Shown here in pieces: positions 3,858 through 15,926 of a stretch of 24,648 nucleotides of DNA. How positions within the stretch are numbered: the first letter of the stretch is position 1; every line of letters begins with the position of its first letter. Below the pieces are notes generated by a model. The model did no database searches. It saw only the letters and a list, made by a program, of their open reading frames with translations, and had not been told where the DNA came from. The position numbers and the translations under genes are program-made. Source of the DNA: a virus (taxonomy: Duplodnaviria; Heunggongvirae; Uroviricota; Caudoviricetes); the IMG/VR virus record IMGVR_UViG_2684622670_000019, positions 1 through 24,648 of that record; one strand, written 5' to 3'.

Positions 3858-5921
3858 CTAAGAAAAAATCCAATTACCATACATTCCAGTTATTTCACTA
3901 TACATGCCTTCTTTATTTTTTAATTTAATCCAAGCGCCGAATTCAGTGGTGGCTACTTGCGTTACTTCTGAAGAGTTACTTACAAACCTTATATTTGCTA
4001 CACCTATTGCTCTACTTGGTGATGAGATTGTCATAGCTCTTATTATTTTTAACTCTCTGAAATCACCAGTGCTACTTGCGATTATATCAATATCATTAGT
4101 GCTATGGTTAAATATAATGGTGTTATTTAACAGCTTTGTATTTTGAAAAGATGTTATTGTGGCAATCCCTCCAATAAATCCTCTTATCTGGGCCGGGCCA
4201 GTATCTCCACTATCATAGGCTAATGATGTGGTTATATTATCTTCCTCCTTTCCTATATGTATATCAATAAAGTACTCTTTTAAACTAATACCAGCCAAAA
4301 CTAAAAATGTTGATATAGTCGATGTACATTTTTTAATAACCAGATTCTTAAAATTTCGAGATAACCCGATGCTTATTGGATCAATAGTTCTAGGTAATAA
4401 TCTGATTATTTTATCCCCACCTGCTATAGTAGTTTCATCAACAATTTCACCTATTTCCACAAAAAGGCGGTCATCCCCCAGCATTTCAAAAACACAAAAG
4501 TCTAAAGGAGACGTCTTAAATACCACTCTATCAATTAAGATTTTCCCTATACCATTTCCCATAACTCTAGTAGCTGTCACCCCTCTGTTAGTCACATTCG
4601 TTAGTGTTGTATTCCCCGAGATGATTACATCAGCTACAAGACTGTCAGGGAAAATATTAAGTTCCACACCAGTATACGCACCATTGATGTATGGGTTTGA
4701 GATTTCACAATTAATCAACCGAGGGACAGTGTGTCCAGGCACACTTTCGTCTGCCTCTGGTTCAATATCTATGCCAGATTTCGGCATAGCACCTGTAACA
4801 CCTCCGTAGTCACCAATATTATAAATCTCAGGATTAACTATTATTATATTTTCACCTGACGTTAGGCTTATACCGTTACGCCTGCATTGTTTGACGATCG
4901 GTTTTTCTATATAGATATTTTCTGGAACCGTGCCATCGGTAGTCCCCCACTTCATGCCTATATATATTCCGTCGCCAAACATGTTGGTATACAGTCCACC
5001 AATAATACGAATGTTAGAGGATTGAAGTATTGTAAGCCCCCATCCATGTTCTCCTTCGGATGTGTTTGTTAACCGATCACCTTCCAGTACAGGATTATAA
5101 ATATTTACATTTTTAACACCGTTTGCTATGTAAATGATATGGCTTTGTGGCCTGTTTTGATTTGCTAGTTTTAATGCCCCATCCTTCTCAAATCTTATAG
5201 TGCTATTATCTACGCATCTTAACACAGATTTAAAAGCATCATTTCCAGGGGAAAAAGGGTCTTCATTCACAGCCATCAAGCCTTCAAATGATTTATCTAT
5301 AATGAATTCTGCACCAATAGATGCTGCGGATTCATACGCTTTTTGTAGTGTTTGTGCGTCATTGCAAAAATCAGAAGCATAAATAGAGTTGGTTTTCTTT
5401 AATTCAAATATCCTACCATTTCTGCTCCTGATAATTAATATTCCATCTGGGGTGAGCGTGGGGGTGGATGATTCATAAACATATCGACCATGAATCATTA
5501 CATGATTAAATATATCTGGGACATCCTCTTGCTCTATATTAATAGCAACATATATAAGTTTATTACTTAACTCCCCCCTTAACTGATCAGGATCATACTT
5601 CAGCACATTAGGAAAATAGAACTGCTGCGCACCATACGCATCATATACAGCCATAGAATGGCCTTGCACAGTTACGAATTTAGCAATCTGTCCGTTATAT
5701 ACCGGATATCCAGCAGCGTTAATGATTATTGGTTGCGAAACAGGAACGTGAGAACCGTCTTCATTCTCCACATAAACCTGAATCTGGTTTTCAGGATTTA
5801 CTGGATCAGTGTCAATTTTACCGATATAAATTTTGCCATTGGCAACCGCTTTAAAAGAACGCGCCATAGTGAATAGTTGCGAAGGCATACTCACTACAAC
5901 ATTGGCTGTAATATCTGTCAT
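3858..5921 (-). CDS. Tailspike protein: P22-type N-terminal head-binding domain fused to a beta-helix receptor-binding (depolymerase) domain
   Basis: 687 aa; N-terminal ~110 aa ([11 protein letters not shown]...[32 protein letters not shown]...VLKYDPDQ) closely matches the P22/Sf6/HK620 tailspike head-binding domain from memory; the remainder is a repetitive beta-helix-like sequence. SD GGAG upstream of ATG 5921. Confidence 0.85.
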
Positions 5922-6053: not shown

Positions 6054-6311
6054 ATGATGTACAGCAAATACGATGAGGCGCAGTTCCACTTGAGGCTTAC
6101 GCACGAGTTGCACGCTAAGATTAAGCAGCGTGCAAAAATGAATAACAGGTCTATCAATTCCGAAATTGTGGCTACGATGGAAGAATCTCTCTCCAAACCA
6201 TCACCTGTAAGCGGGTATCGTGATGAAGAAGAGAGACTGGCCTCATTAATCTCGGAACGAGTAAAAGAAGTTGCGGCTGAAATTCTAAGGAAAGAAAAAA
6301 CCCGCGATTAA
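6054..6311 (+). CDS. Mnt-like ribbon-helix-helix repressor
   Basis: 85 aa from ATG 6054 (MMYSKYDEAQFHLRLTHELHAKIKQRAKMNNRSINSEIVATMEESLSKPSPVSGYRDEEERLA...) aligns with P22 Mnt (..FNFRMPMEVREKLKFRAEANGRSMNSELLQIVQDALSKPSPVTGYRNDAERLA..). The longer ORF-track start at 5877 is rejected. Confidence 0.75.
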   Translation: MMYSKYDEAQFHLRLTHELHAKIKQRAKMNNRSINSEIVATMEESLSKPSPVSGYRDEEERLASLISERVKEVAAEILRKEKTRD

Positions 6312-6326
6312 GCGGGTTTAGTTTTC
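6295..6326. terminator. Bidirectional intrinsic terminator between convergent mnt-like and KilAC antirepressor genes
   Basis: 7-bp stem aacccgc (6299-6305) / gcgggtt (6312-6318), flanked by AAAAAA (6295-6300) and TAGTTTT (6320-6325). Confidence 0.5.
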
Positions 6327-6337
6327 ATTATAAAATG

Positions 6338-7063
6338 TTACGCCACATTTGAGCCATGTAGCAGGTGTTGTAGTGCTTTAACGCCTTCAGAATTGTAGCG
6401 GAACGCCTCTACCTGTTTGCTGGAATGCGCCGATTTATCCAGGAAGAACTTCCCGTACTGCTCAGTTTTGAGGTTGTTTGCGTTAGCAATGCGACCAATC
6501 TTGTTGGCCGTTACTCCAAGCTGCTCTGCAACCTCCCCTGCTGAGTAGTAATGCTCTTCTATTGCCGGAAGAGGTATTGCATTAAAACCAACAAGCGGGT
6601 TGATTATACTTGCTGCCGCTGTCTGCTTTGCCTCCGGCGCAAGATTTGGCATCAGATCGAACAGATTGGTAACAGCTTCAACCGTCATTTTCAGTGTTCG
6701 CGCTTGACGATACTCAATAAGTCCACTCGCTGATTTACCGCTTTTAATGTGTGCTTCCTGCATACTTTCAAGTTTGTCTACAAGTGTTCGGCGAACTGCT
6801 TTAGATTCGCGAGCAGCAACACGAAGCGCCTGCTTGATAGTCATGGAGATAACATCAATGTCAGCCCCGTTTTTCCGACCTACACTTTTTGTGTAGGTCT
6901 CGCCCTCCAATTCATCCTCAATTTTCTCGATGAATTTGTTGTTACGTACTGATGGCTCTCCACATAACTTGCGAGCTTCATTAACCATCATCAGAAGGCT
7001 TTGGCTGTCAATGGTTTTATCCGTGACAACGGATCCGATGTTTGCTACATTCTTCAAAGTCAT
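6338..7063 (-). CDS. Antirepressor-like protein with C-terminal KilAC/ANT-type domain
   Basis: 242 aa from ATG 7063 with SD AAGGA 7 nt upstream; C-terminal region (YSAGEVAEQLGVTANKIGRIANANNL...) resembles the phage antirepressor KilAC domain; sits in the ant position of a P22 immI-like operon. Confidence 0.6.
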   Translation of the reverse strand: MTLKNVANIGSVVTDKTIDSQSLLMMVNEARKLCGEPSVRNNKFIEKIEDELEGETYTKSVGRKNGADIDVISMTIKQALRVAARESKAVRRTLVDKLESMQEAHIKSGKSASGLIEYRQARTLKMTVEAVTNLFDLMPNLAPEAKQTAAASIINPLVGFNAIPLPAIEEHYYSAGEVAEQLGVTANKIGRIANANNLKTEQYGKFFLDKSAHSSKQVEAFRYNSEGVKALQHLLHGSNVA

Positions 7064-7100
7064 TAGGCATTCCTTATGTGGTAGTAAGGGTGTGACATAG

Positions 7101-7132
7101 GCCGCCAGCAGCACACTGGCGGTTTTCTTTTT
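7101..7132 (+). terminator. Intrinsic terminator in antisense orientation between the two antirepressor genes
   Basis: Stem ccgccag (7102-7108) / ctggcgg (7116-7122), 7-nt loop, then TTTTCTTTTT (7123-7132) on the plus strand although both flanking genes are on the minus strand. Confidence 0.55.
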
Positions 7133-7151
7133 GCGCCGTCCGGCGCACCAA

Positions 7152-7778
7152 TCAATGAATCCATTCCTCGCCGCGCAGTTTTGTCAGCATTGGCTGAGCG
7201 TTCTTTACGACAAAATTGTTGGTATCAAGATTCTTCATTTCACGAAGAAGTGATTTCTTGGTTTCTTCTGACATATAGCGAGTCTCATATGCAATATCGT
7301 AAATTCTTCCTGAAAGCTCAGAACCAATTTGCTTCATTCCTGGGTAGATGTGTTTGCACATTTGTTGACTCTTCTCCATCCACAATTGTAAGTAGCAGAG
7401 ATTAACCAGTTCTTCGTCAGTAAACTGTTTTGCAATCGGTGAGCATTCTGCCTGCCGATCCAAAATATCCAGCACCCAGCGGCGGAACTCTTTTGCTACA
7501 GGAGTGCGAGCAAACATCGCGATTAGGTGGGCACCGCGTAGTGAGAAAACTCGCACTTTTTTGCGATAATTTCCTGAGGTACTCACTTCGAGTACCTGAG
7601 TCATTCCGGCGCTAAACTCATCGCCATACTTGTTATAAATCATTGTTACTGCACGACTATTTGCGTATTTAAGTGCAGATGCAATATTAGATGATGTAAA
7701 CCAAACACCATGCATATCACGGGTGGGCACCAACTCAACTCCGTGGAAGTTGTAATCTGATTTTGCTACAATATTCAT
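7152..7778 (-). CDS. Antirepressor-like protein with N-terminal Bro-N/AntA-type domain
   Basis: About 208 aa from ATG 7778 with SD AAGGAA upstream; N-terminal half (NFHGVELVPTRDMHGVWFTSSNIASALKY...LIAMFARTPVAKEFRRWVLDIL) fits the Bro-N/AntA fold pattern; immediately downstream of the Arc-like gene. The TTG start at 7883 from the ORF track is rejected. Confidence 0.6.
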   Translation of the reverse strand: MNIVAKSDYNFHGVELVPTRDMHGVWFTSSNIASALKYANSRAVTMIYNKYGDEFSAGMTQVLEVSTSGNYRKKVRVFSLRGAHLIAMFARTPVAKEFRRWVLDILDRQAECSPIAKQFTDEELVNLCYLQLWMEKSQQMCKHIYPGMKQIGSELSGRIYDIAYETRYMSEETKKSLLREMKNLDTNNFVVKNAQPMLTKLRGEEWIH

Positions 7779-7851
7779 GTTAGTTTCCTTGCATACGGTT
7801 ACTGACATAGAGGCCCGGTTTGTGTTCGCGCACTGCCGGGCTTCGCTATTT

Positions 7852-8025
7852 TTATTGGATGACAACATCGCCCTTTGCCTCAAGTTTCATCAATAACTCC
7901 ATTCGATAAGCTATCTCTGCCTGAATTGACCTATGGCATCTTTTTGCTGATTCGCGGATATGTGAATCAACCTTTTCTGTAAAACGAACCTGACGCGGCT
8001 TGATGGAAGATATCTTTTCAGTCAT
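7852..8025 (-). CDS. Arc-like ribbon-helix-helix repressor (57 aa, below the ORF-track cutoff)
   Basis: MTEKISSIKPRQVRFTEKVDSHIRESAKRCHRSIQAEIAYRMELLMKLEAKGDVVIQ aligns with P22 Arc (PQFNLRWPREVLDLVRKVAEENGRSVNSEIYQRVMESFKKEGRIGA); SD AGGAG 7 nt upstream of ATG 8025; first gene of the minus-strand operon. Confidence 0.7.
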   Translation of the reverse strand: MTEKISSIKPRQVRFTEKVDSHIRESAKRCHRSIQAEIAYRMELLMKLEAKGDVVIQ

Positions 8026-8074
8026 TATGCACTCCTGTTTTTGAAAAACTCATAATCTCACTTTTTGTAGTTTG

Positions 8075-8103
8075 ATTATTCACTCACACTCAGTATGAGT
8101 CAA
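8075..8103 (-). promoter_or_regulatory. Sigma70-type promoter for the arc-ant operon (Pant analogue) with embedded candidate operator
   Basis: On the minus strand TTGACT (8103-8098), 17-nt spacer, AATAAT (8080-8075); the spacer contains the inverted repeat ACTCA-gta-TGAGT (8088-8100) and a further ACTCA copy at 8082-8086. Confidence 0.5.
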
Positions 8104-8124
8104 TGAATTTTTTATGGTGAACTA

Positions 8125-8766
8125 ATGAATTTTGACGATCAATTCCCATCAAGAGTATCTCTGGCAAGACAGTCCAGGGGTATGACGCAGGCGCAGTTGT
8201 CAAAATTAGCTGGTGTTGTTCAACGTCAAATAGCTGCATACGAGGGTGGTGAGGCTAAACCACGGCTTCGTGTATTGCAGGCATTAGCCAACGCATTAGG
8301 TACTACGGCTGAGTGGTTAGCTCTGGGTGAAGGTCAGGGTCCGGGAACAAAAAACGTCATGCCTGACGTTCTGGTAAAGCAAATACCAATCCTCAAACTA
8401 GATGAAGTTATGCATTACCTAAACACAGGTGAACATTCATCGTCTAGATTTCATCCGGCAATATACAATGTTGGTGACTCTGCATTTGCATTGACTATTG
8501 AAGGTGAAGCTATGACTACAAGTTCAGGCATTAGCTTTCCCAGAGGATCAGTTGTCACGTTCAGCCCTCTAGTAAAAGCTAAAAGCAAAGATTATGTAAT
8601 AGCATCATTGGATAAAGAGCAAATATTGAGCTTCAAACAGGTTTACATTGGTGAAATAGAGACAAACCTAGTATCCCTAAACCCAATGTATCCTAATATT
8701 CTTGTTAGAAATGAAGATGTTAGTATTTTGGCAACCGCAGTTTACCTTGAAATCCCGTTGCTTTGA
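8125..8766 (+). CDS. Lambda-CI-fold repressor (N-terminal XRE HTH, C-terminal S24 LexA-like domain) with catalytic Ser replaced by Ala; predicted non-cleavable
   Basis: 213 aa; HTH (MTQAQLSKLAGVVQRQIAAYEGGEAKP); C-terminal domain aligns with the lambda CI C-terminal domain (VGDSAFALTIEGEAM versus ASDSAFWLEVEGNSM; SFKQV versus TFKKL; LNPMYP versus LNPQYP). Divergent from the arc-like operon, in the P22 mnt position. Confidence 0.75.
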   Translation: MNFDDQFPSRVSLARQSRGMTQAQLSKLAGVVQRQIAAYEGGEAKPRLRVLQALANALGTTAEWLALGEGQGPGTKNVMPDVLVKQIPILKLDEVMHYLNTGEHSSSRFHPAIYNVGDSAFALTIEGEAMTTSSGISFPRGSVVTFSPLVKAKSKDYVIASLDKEQILSFKQVYIGEIETNLVSLNPMYPNILVRNEDVSILATAVYLEIPLL

Positions 8767-8826: not shown

Positions 8827-9054
8827 GTGAAGCGATGGTTCCTCATAATTACTGTTTTCGCGATCATTTACACTATTTTCCCTGCATTAAAAGCACCAAT
8901 GCAAATAATTTCACTAGCAATAATTGCGATTGGTGCTTTCATTGCAGTAGCCGTACTTGTGTTTAAGGTTTTAAAGTTTTTAGTTTGGCTATCAAAAGAT
9001 GATGGATGCAAAGTTCATCAAGAAAAAGAAGGCAAAATAACCAAAGTTGACTAA
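8827..9054 (+). CDS. Small two-TM membrane protein; candidate superinfection-exclusion or abortive-infection effector
   Basis: 75 aa; strong SD TAAGGAGG 5 nt upstream of GTG 8827; two hydrophobic helices (FLIITVFAIIYTIF, IISLAIIAIGAFIAVAVLVF) and a charged C-terminus; AT-rich; directly downstream of and co-oriented with the CI-like repressor; no recognisable homologue. Confidence 0.55.
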   Translation: MKRWFLIITVFAIIYTIFPALKAPMQIISLAIIAIGAFIAVAVLVFKVLKFLVWLSKDDGCKVHQEKEGKITKVD

Positions 9055-11174
9055 CTGTCACTAGCGAGCCATGTAATAATCCCCGTGCGGGCAATGGTTT
9101 TTGCTTCATCTGTTGATAAGGTTTTCTCCCATCTCTTAAATGCCCCAGATTGCATCAGTTTCCTTTCTATTACGCGTCTCACTTCTGCTCTGTCTACTGG
9201 TGCGTTTTGCAGGCGAAATAGCATTGATTTAAACTCAGGAGAAGACAGTAGAGCATCAGCAGCCTTTATCCTGCTTGTTTTCCCTGACATCAATGCGGAC
9301 GTTATCACCCCTGTTGCACCTACACCAGGAAGACCAGATAAGCTTGTAATACCTTCCGCCGCAGCAGCTTTTGAGGCTATTCCATAAATTTTTGCGAGAC
9401 TACCCTTTTCTTTCAGAAAGTTATTAACTTGCTGATCCACAAGGCTACTAGCATACTGCTTACCAGTATTGAGTCTATTCATAGACTTAGCTGCTTGATA
9501 AATCGTATCAAGGCGCTTTGATGCATCTGTGCCAATAGCATCACGGAGAGCCTTCATATTGGCCCCATTGCGTGACATTCCGTTATACCATTTTACAAAT
9601 CCATCAACTCCTAATTGCTGGCCAGGTGATTTGGCATAGCTGGTAAATGCTTTATTCATTGAGGTGAGCGCAACTTCCTGCCGCATATCCTTTGGAATTG
9701 ACTTCATTAATTGCCTAAAGTCACCACCGTTTCCTTTTGCCATATTAACAACAGCACTTTCAACTTTTGGAATTGCTGATTGCTGAAGTTTTCTACCCAA
9801 GACGGTTACAGCATCATCTTCAATGGATTTTCGTTTTTTTACCAACTCCTTACCAAGCGTCCATAACTCCCCTGCGCCATATTTTTCTGCGACAGCCTGT
9901 TGGTCATCTGTTATAGCTGCATATAACTTTTTAAGAACACCTGTTTCTTCATCCTTGAATGGACCAGAGCCTTTGCCAATAGCTTGCCCCACCTGCTTTC
10001 TAGCGAGATCTAAACGCCCATACGTTGGCAAGGTGTTTGGATCAAGTCGGTTCAATGTCCGCTTCATTATTGGAGATAATTCATCAATTCCACCTATGTC
10101 ATCAGCAAAATCCTCTAAAAAATTCAATGTATTAGTTGCCTCAATACGGTCTCTTACTGGAACCTTTTCGGCAATTTTGTTGTAGATGTTATCTGACTGA
10201 TTTTGTAATGATGAAATGGTTTTATCAAAATTATCTGCAAGCCTGTCAGAAACCAGTTGCTTATCAAGGCTTCCCCCAAATGAAGTTATCATTTCATCAG
10301 CTTTTCTTCCTAATTCAGTAATAAAACGCTTATGCGCCTCACTAATCTCTGTTCCAGGGAGACTTGCCACTGCATTATCAAGAGCCCTGACAGCGGGATT
10401 ATTAGAGATCATGCCTGGAGTGGCATAATTTTCCAGTTCTAGCTCACGAATAGCATTTATCGCGTTAAAATCAGGATTAACTTCATCGGCGAAATCTTGA
10501 ATAGCTCGTTGCCCGCCGATAAATTTATTGTCCATTGCGCCAGCAGCTTTCTTTAACGTTGCTTTAGATGATTTACTACCCATCCCTACGGATGAGCGAT
10601 AAATATCTCCGGCACTATTTTTAATTTTTCCTGCAATCTTCCCAAGCGCTGGGCCAACAATCTCTGCTACAGGGCCAGCCACAGCGCCAATAGCAGCGCC
10701 GGAAGCAACATCGCTATTTGTTCCATTGGCTACAATAGCCCCTTCTCCAGCACCAAGCCCTGCGGCGGCAGCCAGCCTTGCCGCCCCTTTCGGAACCTGA
10801 GAAATAATCCCACCACCACTAACAAATGGTGCTGCTTGTCCAACGAACTCACCAACATCTTGTGCGGTTGATGGTTTTGCCGCTAACTTCTGCTGTAGAG
10901 ACTGAATTGCGGCTTGCTCTTCTGGTGTCATATCCTGAAACAGGCCAACACCTTTACCAACATCCATCAATCCACTGAGAACGCCATACATAAAACGGTC
11001 GAAACCGTTGGCTTTATTAACAACATTTTCCTGTCTGGAATTTTCCTCTGGTGAAACCAAAGGTGATTGCTGCTGTTCTGGTTGGGCATCAAGCACAAAA
11101 CCATCAGGAAGCTGTGAGTTATCAGGCTGATTATCGAGAACAAAGCCTTCGGGTAAACCTACATCGGTTGCCAT
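9051..11174 (-). CDS. Ejection (E) protein, P22 gp16-like
   Basis: 707 aa, Gly/Ala-rich; last gene of the gp7-gp20-gp16 ejection-protein block by conserved P22-like gene order. Confidence 0.7.
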
Positions 11175-14508: not shown

Positions 14509-15926
14509 TACTCAATCCTTATCTGGCAGCCAGACAGAGTTACAGGTGACTTAGTGATAACGCGCAATTTGAAGCCAATGTTTTTCCTGATGCGCCCTAC
14601 TTTCTTCCACAAAACGCGTTTGTCGTAAACGAACGGTTCATTCTGCTCAATCATCTGCTCACGCCCGTAATTGATGCCGTCAGTGGTTGCAGAGAGGAAC
14701 AGGCGGTCGGCGTACTGCGCAACGCCAGTTGACGATTCAACCTCAAGATCGAACACTCTGGCGTTATCCGCTTTGAACAACGGAGTAAACAGCAGGTGTT
14801 CCTGTTGCTTGTCGTACTGGCTGCTGATATCGAACTGCAATTTCCCTGTCATCGATTCAAGCTTATCGCCGCACGTTATTTGGTTGCCTTCGTAAATGAA
14901 GTCGATAGCGCGGTACACATCGTCATACAGGCCTGTTTTCAGTACACACCATTGCGGACCATTGGCGCTTGAAGATGCGTCGTACACGAGAACATGGCGC
15001 GGAAGGTGGATAATCAGCAACTCATGAGCATCAAATCTCAGCGATTCCATCACACCATCAGCCAGTTCATCAGCAGTGTAGGAGCGTAGTATTTTCTCAA
15101 TGCTCGCGCTGGCGATTGGTGATACCTGACCGGAGCCGATGATATACACAGACGGCGCACCTGTTGCCGGATTGCTGATAAACGCATAGGAATCAGCAAA
15201 CGGCGTTTTGCAGTAAGTTCCGGCGATGCCTTTCTGCACCATCAGCGATGGCTGTGCAACATACAAAGCGGCACCAACGGTGGTTGCCCCAGTCAGGGAA
15301 AAATATTCAATCGTCGATGAGCCAAAGCAGACGATGAAGTCTCGCCATGTTCCGATGCCGATGATACCGTCCGGCTGCGATTCTGCGCGATATTGTGCGC
15401 TGTATCGGTCAGGGTGCGATTCGTCTTCAAGGTCAGTGATAAACCATGAATCAGTGCCGTCTTTTGACCACGCATAACGCCCACGTAAGCGCGTAATGTC
15501 GCGGACTGAACCTAACTCATACTGCGTGAATCCGCTGTCTGTAGGCCAGTTTGAGACGGTTTTAACCGTGCCATCATAGCGATACTCGACCAGTTGACCA
15601 TTAACGCCTACTGCCTGTGATGTCCTACCGTGTGCCATTGATACGCGACCACTTCCGGCAACATCACCGACCTCGCTTTCGCCCTTATACAGCTTGCCGC
15701 CACACACGCGATATACAGCATTCTGCGCCATGTTGTACTCGACGCCGCGCGATACGCCGTTCACATCAGAACGTTTGGCAATGCCCGGGAATGAGCGAAG
15801 ATATCCGCTGCTGTTCAGGATTTCTTTGGGTGTAGCCAACATATTCACTGGGAGATAGTCGATATAGTCGGCGTTTCGAAAGTCTTTGCCGACACCTTTC
15901 ATAAGCGGAAGTTGCTGAATCGGCAT
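14508..15926 (-). CDS. Tail hub / head-completion protein, P22 gp10-like
   Basis: 472 aa (same length as P22 gp10); conserved position between gp4 and gp26. Confidence 0.75.

Follow-up and report, generated by a model that had tools for sequence, protein, structure and literature searches.

Does the short gap upstream of a phage antirepressor gene hold a gene for an antisense RNA, read against the antirepressor from a promoter within its own coding sequence? The question is raised by a stretch of DNA of 24,648 nucleotides (nt), here called the window, from a tailed-phage genome (Caudoviricetes; IMG/VR record IMGVR_UViG_2684622670_000019, positions 1 to 24,648), in which we recognise the immunity-I region (immI, or 'ant moron') of a P22-like prophage, in inverted orientation with respect to the P22 map. 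Two antirepressor genes, ant1 and ant2, follow each other on the minus strand of this region, and an initial annotation, made without database searches, had proposed an antisense promoter and terminator upstream of ant1, its Bro-N gene. Phage P22 makes at such a place an RNA of ~70 nt, sar, that represses Ant translation (PMC12197685; published summaries of its role are in PMC12197685, PMC12111858 and PMC2629481). We conclude, with a rough probability of 85%, that window positions 7744-7853 (plus strand) are a functional sar-type antisense RNA gene, referred to below as sar1: the proposed promoter and terminator have the position and architecture of P22 Psar and sar, the promoter is conserved among relatives, and both hairpins of the predicted RNA covary. 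The features concerned are listed in Table 1.

In the P22 record, whose annotation in GenBank supplied the details of Psar together with secondary papers, arc lies at 14861-15022, sar at 15021-15090 on the opposite strand and Psar at 15097-15125, with ant starting at 15091. The -10 element of P22 Psar, TGcTATACT, stands at offset 6-11 from the ant ATG, exactly as does that of the window promoter, Psar1, where the sequence TTTGCTACAAT at 7762-7772 (plus strand) provides the TG at 7764-65 and the hexamer TACAAT at 7767-72; TGc precedes the hexamer in both. In either case transcription is predicted to start at the G that immediately precedes the ant ATG (the complement of 7776-7778 in the window), and the 3' end falls within the stop codon of the upstream gene in P22 and, by prediction, in the window. 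Read along the sar strand, P22 runs TTGCTATACTATTCATG / GTTGGTTT...TTACTGACA... into a hairpin with AACUUU after it; the corresponding stretch of the window is TTGCTACAATATTCATG / GTTAGTTT...TTACTGACA..., and its hairpin leads into GCUAUUUUU. The sequence common to the two is TTGCTATACTATTCATGTTGGTTT...TTACTGACA in P22 and TTGCTACAATATTCATGTTAGTTT...TTACTGACA in the window.

The two RNAs are built alike, each with a 5' hairpin of six pairs that presents an anti-Shine-Dalgarno sequence and with a long 3' hairpin. For the window we infer a 5' end at G7779, directly adjoining the ant1 ATG, and a 3' end in the U run. RNA of positions 7779-7856, a segment matched by both of our models (R1 and R2, see below), folds at -33.2 kcal/mol (z = -5.2; 0/200 shuffles as good), compared with -29.5 kcal/mol (z = -5.3) for P22 sar. 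The UUUCCUU of the 5' hairpin is the complement of AAGGAAA, the ribosome binding site of ant1. The initial annotation, which gave the coordinates of the motifs correctly throughout, had reported a plus-strand stem at 7813-7818 / 7836-7841; this stem is present but forms part of a longer structure, with an outer stem of ten pairs, G-U pairs included, and an inner stem of four. Nor does the description of the ant1 module as a secondary one with a weaker terminator fit what we find, given that it occupies the canonical sar position and that its U tract is better than the tail AACUUU of the functional P22 sar terminator.

Relatives were collected by a search anchored on the ant1 protein, and hence unbiased for non-coding DNA, which yielded 80 viral contigs, with ant1 proteins that share 61-100% identity with that of the window. 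The initial annotation had named conservation of the motif at ant gene starts as a check, and this conservation is what the relatives display: at the same offset from the ant1 start, TAnAnT is kept at 80/80 loci and the preceding TG at 76/80, while the place of the -35 element is occupied in all 80 by TGGAAG, TTGAAG or TGGAAA. The TG is lost at four loci, in two of which the -10 or the -35 element is better (TATAAT with TTGAAG in L081; TTGAAG in L066). Among codon pairs that specify the same residue, synonymous identity is 82% in ant1 codons 2-13 and 47% in codons 14-70, which points to a constraint on codons 2-13 that acts on the nucleotides, beyond that on the protein.

The junction occurs in 32 distinct RNA versions, of which 31 fold into the same two hairpins from nucleotide +1. 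The 5' stem is found as GUUAGU/ACUGAC, GUUGGU/ACUGAC, GUUGGU/GCCGAC, GUCGA/UCGAU and GUCAG/CUGGC, and the 3' stem as GGCCCGG/CCGGGC, GGCCCAG/CUGGGC, GAGACCCGG/CCGGGUCUC, GAAACCCCG/CGGGGUUUC and the P22-like GAAGCCCUG.../...GGGGCUUC; two loci (L004 and L013) carry a natural double change, G>A plus C>U, in the 3' stem. Plain MAFFT alignments put the 5' stems, and the 3' stem in part, out of register between subtypes (from one of them, A2, RNAalifold recovered the 3' helix alone), and a covariance-model alignment was used instead. In this alignment 95.8% of cells are paired and 12/16 pairs have changed on both sides, comprising 6/6 pairs of the 5' hairpin and 6/10 of the 3' outer stem (96.9% of cells paired), and the covariation score is 0.515 as against 0.182 for shuffles (0/500 reach it) and at most 0.083 for slid controls, although fitting an alignment to the structure of the model biases such counts towards that structure. 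The T run after the hairpin is likewise kept in nearly all relatives, mostly as T5 or T6, despite unrelated upstream genes; it is shorter or interrupted in P22 and at four loci (L077, L078, L079 and L082).

This bias is one of several points that weigh against a functional sar1. A consensus scan did not call Psar1, whose -35 element has 3/6 matches only, and did not call the terminator, whose loop and spacer exceed the limits of the scan. Judged as an intrinsic terminator, in which a GC-rich stem stands directly before the U tract, the element has a strong stem, but its U5 is 4 nt away, separated from it by GCUA. The first 12 residues of ant1 (MNIVAKSDxNF) are conserved as protein as well, and this protein constraint could explain part of the conservation of Psar1. 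Finally, the Rfam sar model (RF00262; gathering threshold 43 bits), which scores P22 at 97.8 bits as a positive control, has no match in the window at its gathering threshold and none in 6900-8150 even at E up to 10.

What brings the window element into the family despite the last of these points is a pair of reciprocal matches. RF00262 scores above threshold at the equivalent place upstream of related ant1 genes (59.4 bits in L084, also in L049, and 48 bits in phage SPN3UB), and our model R2, built from window-type sequences only, has a single match in the 41.7-kb P22 genome, which is sar itself (15018-15090; 23.2 bits, E = 0.011), a match that is only moderately significant and whose E-value, like the others of R2, is rough. 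R2 also matches L049, L054, L006 and L084 (E = 8e-4 to 0.02), and thereby finds Rfam-positive elements. Because RF00262 finds the equivalents at related loci and R2 finds P22 sar, we place the window element in the sar family, as a member that has diverged: judged by its sequence it is an RNA of a known kind that lies outside the present Rfam model, which covers part of the family only. Weak Rfam matches to symR (24.9 bits) and SgrS (13 bits) were judged to be due to chance or driven by the terminator.

Could the same conservation be explained by an element of the operon mRNA, on the sense strand? The hairpin, lying between the upstream gene and ant1, might then, for example, stabilise the mRNA or serve as a processing site or an attenuator, and the promoter motif would be only a by-product of the MNIVAK codons. 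The sense RNA does form the same hairpin, and both the conserved N-terminal peptide and the poor -35 element suit such an explanation; however, the conserved T run follows the hairpin on the antisense strand only (the sense strand has no T run after the hairpin and an A run before it instead), conservation at synonymous sites is far higher in codons 2-13 than in the rest of ant1, in all relatives the 5' hairpin opens precisely with the predicted first base, and the homologous element of P22 is a demonstrated antisense RNA gene. We therefore regard a sense-strand element as improbable.

Slightly less probable still is a decaying relic, homologous to sar and no longer expressed or regulatory in this prophage lineage. 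Its divergence beyond the reach of RF00262, the weak -35 element and the replacement of canonical arc by an unrelated open reading frame (ORF) are what decay might look like. Yet even within the window-type lineage both stems have been maintained by compensatory changes, as in the passage from GGCCCGG/CCGGGC to GGCCCAG/CUGGGC, the -10 element has been lost at none of the 80 loci and improvements of the promoter accompany two of the four losses of TG, and the U tract surpasses that of the functional P22 gene.

Motif counts within the window are by themselves unconvincing, and the case against chance rests on the relatives, where it is strong. The 9-mer TTTGCTACA has four copies in the window as against 0.33 expected (0/100 shuffles reach four), but two of them (3994-4002 and 7492-7500, plus strand) lie in the coding sequences of the tailspike and of ant1, with neither completion of the -10 element nor a terminator, and are probably driven by codons (Val-Ala-Lys); TTTGCTACA alone is not diagnostic. 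For the pattern TGNTAYAWT the window shows no enrichment (6 matches as against 4.3 expected). A chance resemblance to a promoter and terminator, for which this lack of enrichment and the two irrelevant coding sites speak, is nonetheless very improbable in view of the fold (z = -5.2), of conservation and covariation across loci as diverged as those sampled, and of a position that is exactly that of P22 sar.

If sar1 is indeed a functional sar-type gene, it would probably act as its P22 counterpart does. A sigma-70 extended -10 promoter within the first 12 codons of ant1 would start transcription, most likely at G7779, and the RNA would fold so that its 5' hairpin presents UUUCCUU and its 3' hairpin and U run form an intrinsic terminator. 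The complementarity of sar1 to the ant1 leader is perfect; most likely it forms a duplex with the ant1 mRNA over its ribosome binding site and start region and so blocks initiation of translation; expression of sar1 and translational repression of ant1 are thus expected by analogy with P22. Such an RNA would limit the antirepressor made from transcripts that are beyond the reach of repressors acting at the Pant-like promoter. The key case would be read-through from the late operon: this operon (gp16-like gene, then immI, then tailspike, as in P22) lies on the strand of ant1 and ant2, so that read-through carries both ant genes and would escape repression at the Pant-like promoter. A translational block is needed separately at each ribosome binding site, which would account for the presence of one antisense RNA per ant gene.

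The ends of sar1 are also joints in the mosaic of related genomes. In one group of Escherichia coli prophages the match to the window extends to 7858, just past the U run, and a true Arc homologue follows, while SPN3UB-type phages match only up to 7780, at the ant1 start codon, and join an identical promoter to a P22-like RNA body. The conserved antisense-RNA cassette thus appears, from these alignments, to serve as a linker for the exchange of modules. At two loci (L074 and L081) the frame of ant1 is interrupted or truncated, yet sar1 upstream of it remains intact, scoring 104.4 and 94.1 bits against model R1.

A second module of the same design, sar2, is predicted at the ant1-ant2 junction. 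Its promoter, Psar2, includes TTTGCTACATT at 7041-7051 (plus strand), and its terminator is GGCCGCCAG-loop-CUGGCGGUU (stem 7100-7108 / 7116-7124) followed by UUUUCUUUUU. The proposal of a promoter motif shared by the modules of the Bro-N gene and of ant2 (the KilAC gene of the initial annotation) holds for the extended -10 element, TGcTAnAnT, and the Psar1 and Psar2 regions are locally similar (p about 0.003), the modules being significantly alike over the promoter segment only. The two motifs do not, as had been thought, stand at strictly equivalent places, because the -10 element lies at offset 12-17 from the ATG of ant2 (complement of 7061-7063) and at 6-11 from that of ant1. An origin of sar1 and sar2 by duplication is possible on this evidence.

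Two antirepressor genes with an antisense module each had been expected to be unusual; both modules are in fact present at every related locus with an intact ant1, TGCTAnnnT being found in all of them. Among 25 distinct versions of sar2, a -35 element (GTGACA, TCGACA or a relative such as GAGACA or ATGACA) always stands 17 nt upstream, and the predicted RNA is 68-84 nt long; seven core pairs of the stem are kept in 18 variants, with two covarying positions and ten different loops. The gene that follows the promoter is mosaic, being window-type ant2, ORF6N-like, Rha-like or KilA-N-like, and in each gene of this ant2 type the promoter lies within a short leader at the N-terminus, xxVANxxxVV(T/D). 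Rfam has no gathering-level match at sar2 in the window or in 20 related loci, a permissive scan there returned a chance-level SgrS only (7037-7130; 13 bits, E = 0.64), and models R1 and R2 do not match 7058-7134. We found no description of sar2 in the papers that we read, and it is the more novel element of the two.

These observations incline us, with moderate confidence, towards a wider reading, in which the window would exemplify a widespread variant of immI with tandem antirepressor genes, each provided with a dedicated sar-type RNA, and in which the leader would be a mobile 'antisense-guarded start cassette' and a recombination joint. Each antisense promoter (TGcTAnAnT, in sar2 also with a near-consensus -35 element) would lie within a short N-terminal leader, of which the ant1 type (MNIVA / MNSIA) precedes Bro-N and P22_AR_N antirepressors and the ant2 type (xxVANxxxVV[T/D]) precedes window-type ant2, ORF6N-like, Rha-like and KilA-N-like proteins.

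The surrounding genes complete the picture of the locus. A Pant-like promoter, placed as if to drive the 57-residue (57-aa) ORF, ant1 and ant2 in this order, would be convergent with Psar1 and Psar2. The ORF, which occupies the position of arc and had been described as Arc-like, is not recognisable as an Arc homologue, since Pfam gives no match to Arc (PF03869) and BLASTP no similarity to the true Arc that takes the same place in L004 (42% identical to P22 Arc). It matches phrog_10182, of unknown function, and its signals for a ribbon-helix-helix fold are weak, with ParD_like of Pfam at 19.8 bits (E = 8e-4), under the 23-bit cut-off, and an alignment of the ribbon-helix-helix type to AmrZ at E = 0.8. 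The place of P22 mnt is taken by a cI/C2-like gene with helix-turn-helix (HTH) and Peptidase_S24 domains, divergent from the Pant-like promoter; the S24 domain would suggest RecA-dependent self-cleavage of the product, and expression of the antirepressors could then be SOS-inducible. At the other end, an Mnt-like gene is convergent with the end of ant2, with which it shares a hairpin, AAACCCGC..GCGGGTTT (6298-6319), that resembles a bidirectional terminator and has flanking T runs on both strands. No Pfam match was found for ant2. Between the ant1 stop codon and the U tract of sar2 lies a GC-rich palindrome, GCGCCGTCCGGCGC (7133-7146), which is variable among relatives and has no U tract on either strand.

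Table 1. Positions of the antisense modules, promoters and genes in the window.
Feature	Position	Strand	Remarks
Tailspike gene	3858-5921	-	
Arc-domain, Mnt-like gene	6054-6311	+	
ant2, second antirepressor gene, putative target of sar2	6338-7063	-	PHROGs phrog_1726 'anti-repressor', E = 2e-100
Psar2, GTGACA - 17 nt - TGcTACATT	7023-7051	+	in ant2 codons 5-14; consensus scan
sar2, predicted second antisense RNA, about 70-75 nt	7058-7132	+	spans ant2 start codon and ribosome binding site
ant1, antirepressor gene, Bro-N and P22AR_C domains, putative target of sar1	7152-7778	-	Pfam; PHROGs phrog_245 'anti-repressor Ant'
Psar1, -35-like element TGGAAG (3/6 matches)	7744-7749	+	17 nt upstream of -10; ant1 codons 10-12
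Psar1, extended -10 element TGcTACAAT	7764-7772	+	in ant1 codons 3-5; offset 6-11 from ATG
sar1, predicted sar-type antisense RNA, about 73-75 nt	7779-7853	+	fold, models R1/R2, P22 layout
sar1, 5' hairpin	stem 7779-7784 / 7801-7806	+	loop carries anti-Shine-Dalgarno UUUCCUU (7784-7790)
sar1, predicted 3' terminator hairpin	7810-7844	+	outer stem 7810-7819 / 7835-7844; inner stem 7822-25 / 7830-33
sar1, predicted terminator tail GCUAUUUUUAUU	7845-7856	+	U5 at 7849-7853 overlaps TAA stop of 57-aa ORF (7852-7854)
57-aa ORF in arc position	7852-8025	-	ribbon-helix-helix possible
Pant-like promoter, TTGACT-17-AATAAT	8075-8103	-	consensus scan, 10/12 matches
cI-like HTH + S24 repressor gene	8125-8766	+	
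gp16-like ejection protein gene	9051-11174	-	

The closest records to the window are phage JEP4 (97.5% identity) and a prophage of E. coli HS (99.5% over 7000-8130), and 7000-8130 is matched at least partly in 99/5,426 complete E. coli genomes and over most of its length in 27. With sar1, a common prophage module of E. coli and Salmonella would gain a regulatory RNA gene that is at present unannotated. Ant morons of the HS-1 type appear to lack arc, and control of the antirepressor has been suggested to differ in them from that in P22 (PMC2629481, the epsilon34 paper); our analysis suggests that they keep at least the antisense layer of P22-type control, apparently duplicated for a second antirepressor gene. 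The sar1 locus also shows clearly how a promoter can constrain the codons for the N-terminus of a protein, and our understanding of how sar-type regulation works is left unchanged by it.

Among known systems, lambda OOP and P22 sas are the most distant parallels: like the RNA proposed here they are short constitutive cis-antisense RNAs with intrinsic terminators that tune a gene for lysis-lysogeny or exclusion, but their targets are the 3' end of cII and sieB, respectively, their mechanisms are RNase III cleavage and a translational switch, and they share no homology with the window. The c4 RNA of P1 and P7 (icd-ant) comes closer in effect, being a small RNA that occludes a ribosome binding region and prevents synthesis of an antirepressor. 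It is, however, processed from the transcript of its own target and acts via short complementary segments, unlike a cis-antisense RNA made by convergent transcription, and it bears no sequence relation to the window. The sar elements of P22-like phages, annotated in epsilon34 and measured in UAB_Phi20, and the one detected by RF00262 in the siphovirus SPN3UB have the same position as that of the window, and loci of the SPN3UB type have a related ant1 and an identical promoter, TTTGCTACAATATTCATG. These elements keep a P22-like 3' hairpin (GAAGCCCU...GGGGCUUC) and pass the Rfam threshold, whereas in the window type the 5' stem is different (GUUAGU/ACUGAC) and the 3' hairpin contains an internal loop. 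The closest parallel is P22 itself (RF00262; immI mnt-arc-sar-ant), which shares with the window a cis-antisense RNA of ~70 nt (predicted in the window) between the gene in the arc position and ant, an extended -10 element within ant codons 3-4, and promoter and 5' stem sequences that are partly identical. The window, with its predicted sar1, differs from P22 in hairpin sequences that have diverged, hence without a match to RF00262, in a target with a Bro-N rather than a P22_AR_N N-terminal domain, in an upstream gene that is not an Arc homologue, in a divergent regulator that is cI-like (HTH and S24) and not Mnt, and in a second antirepressor gene with a predicted antisense module of its own.

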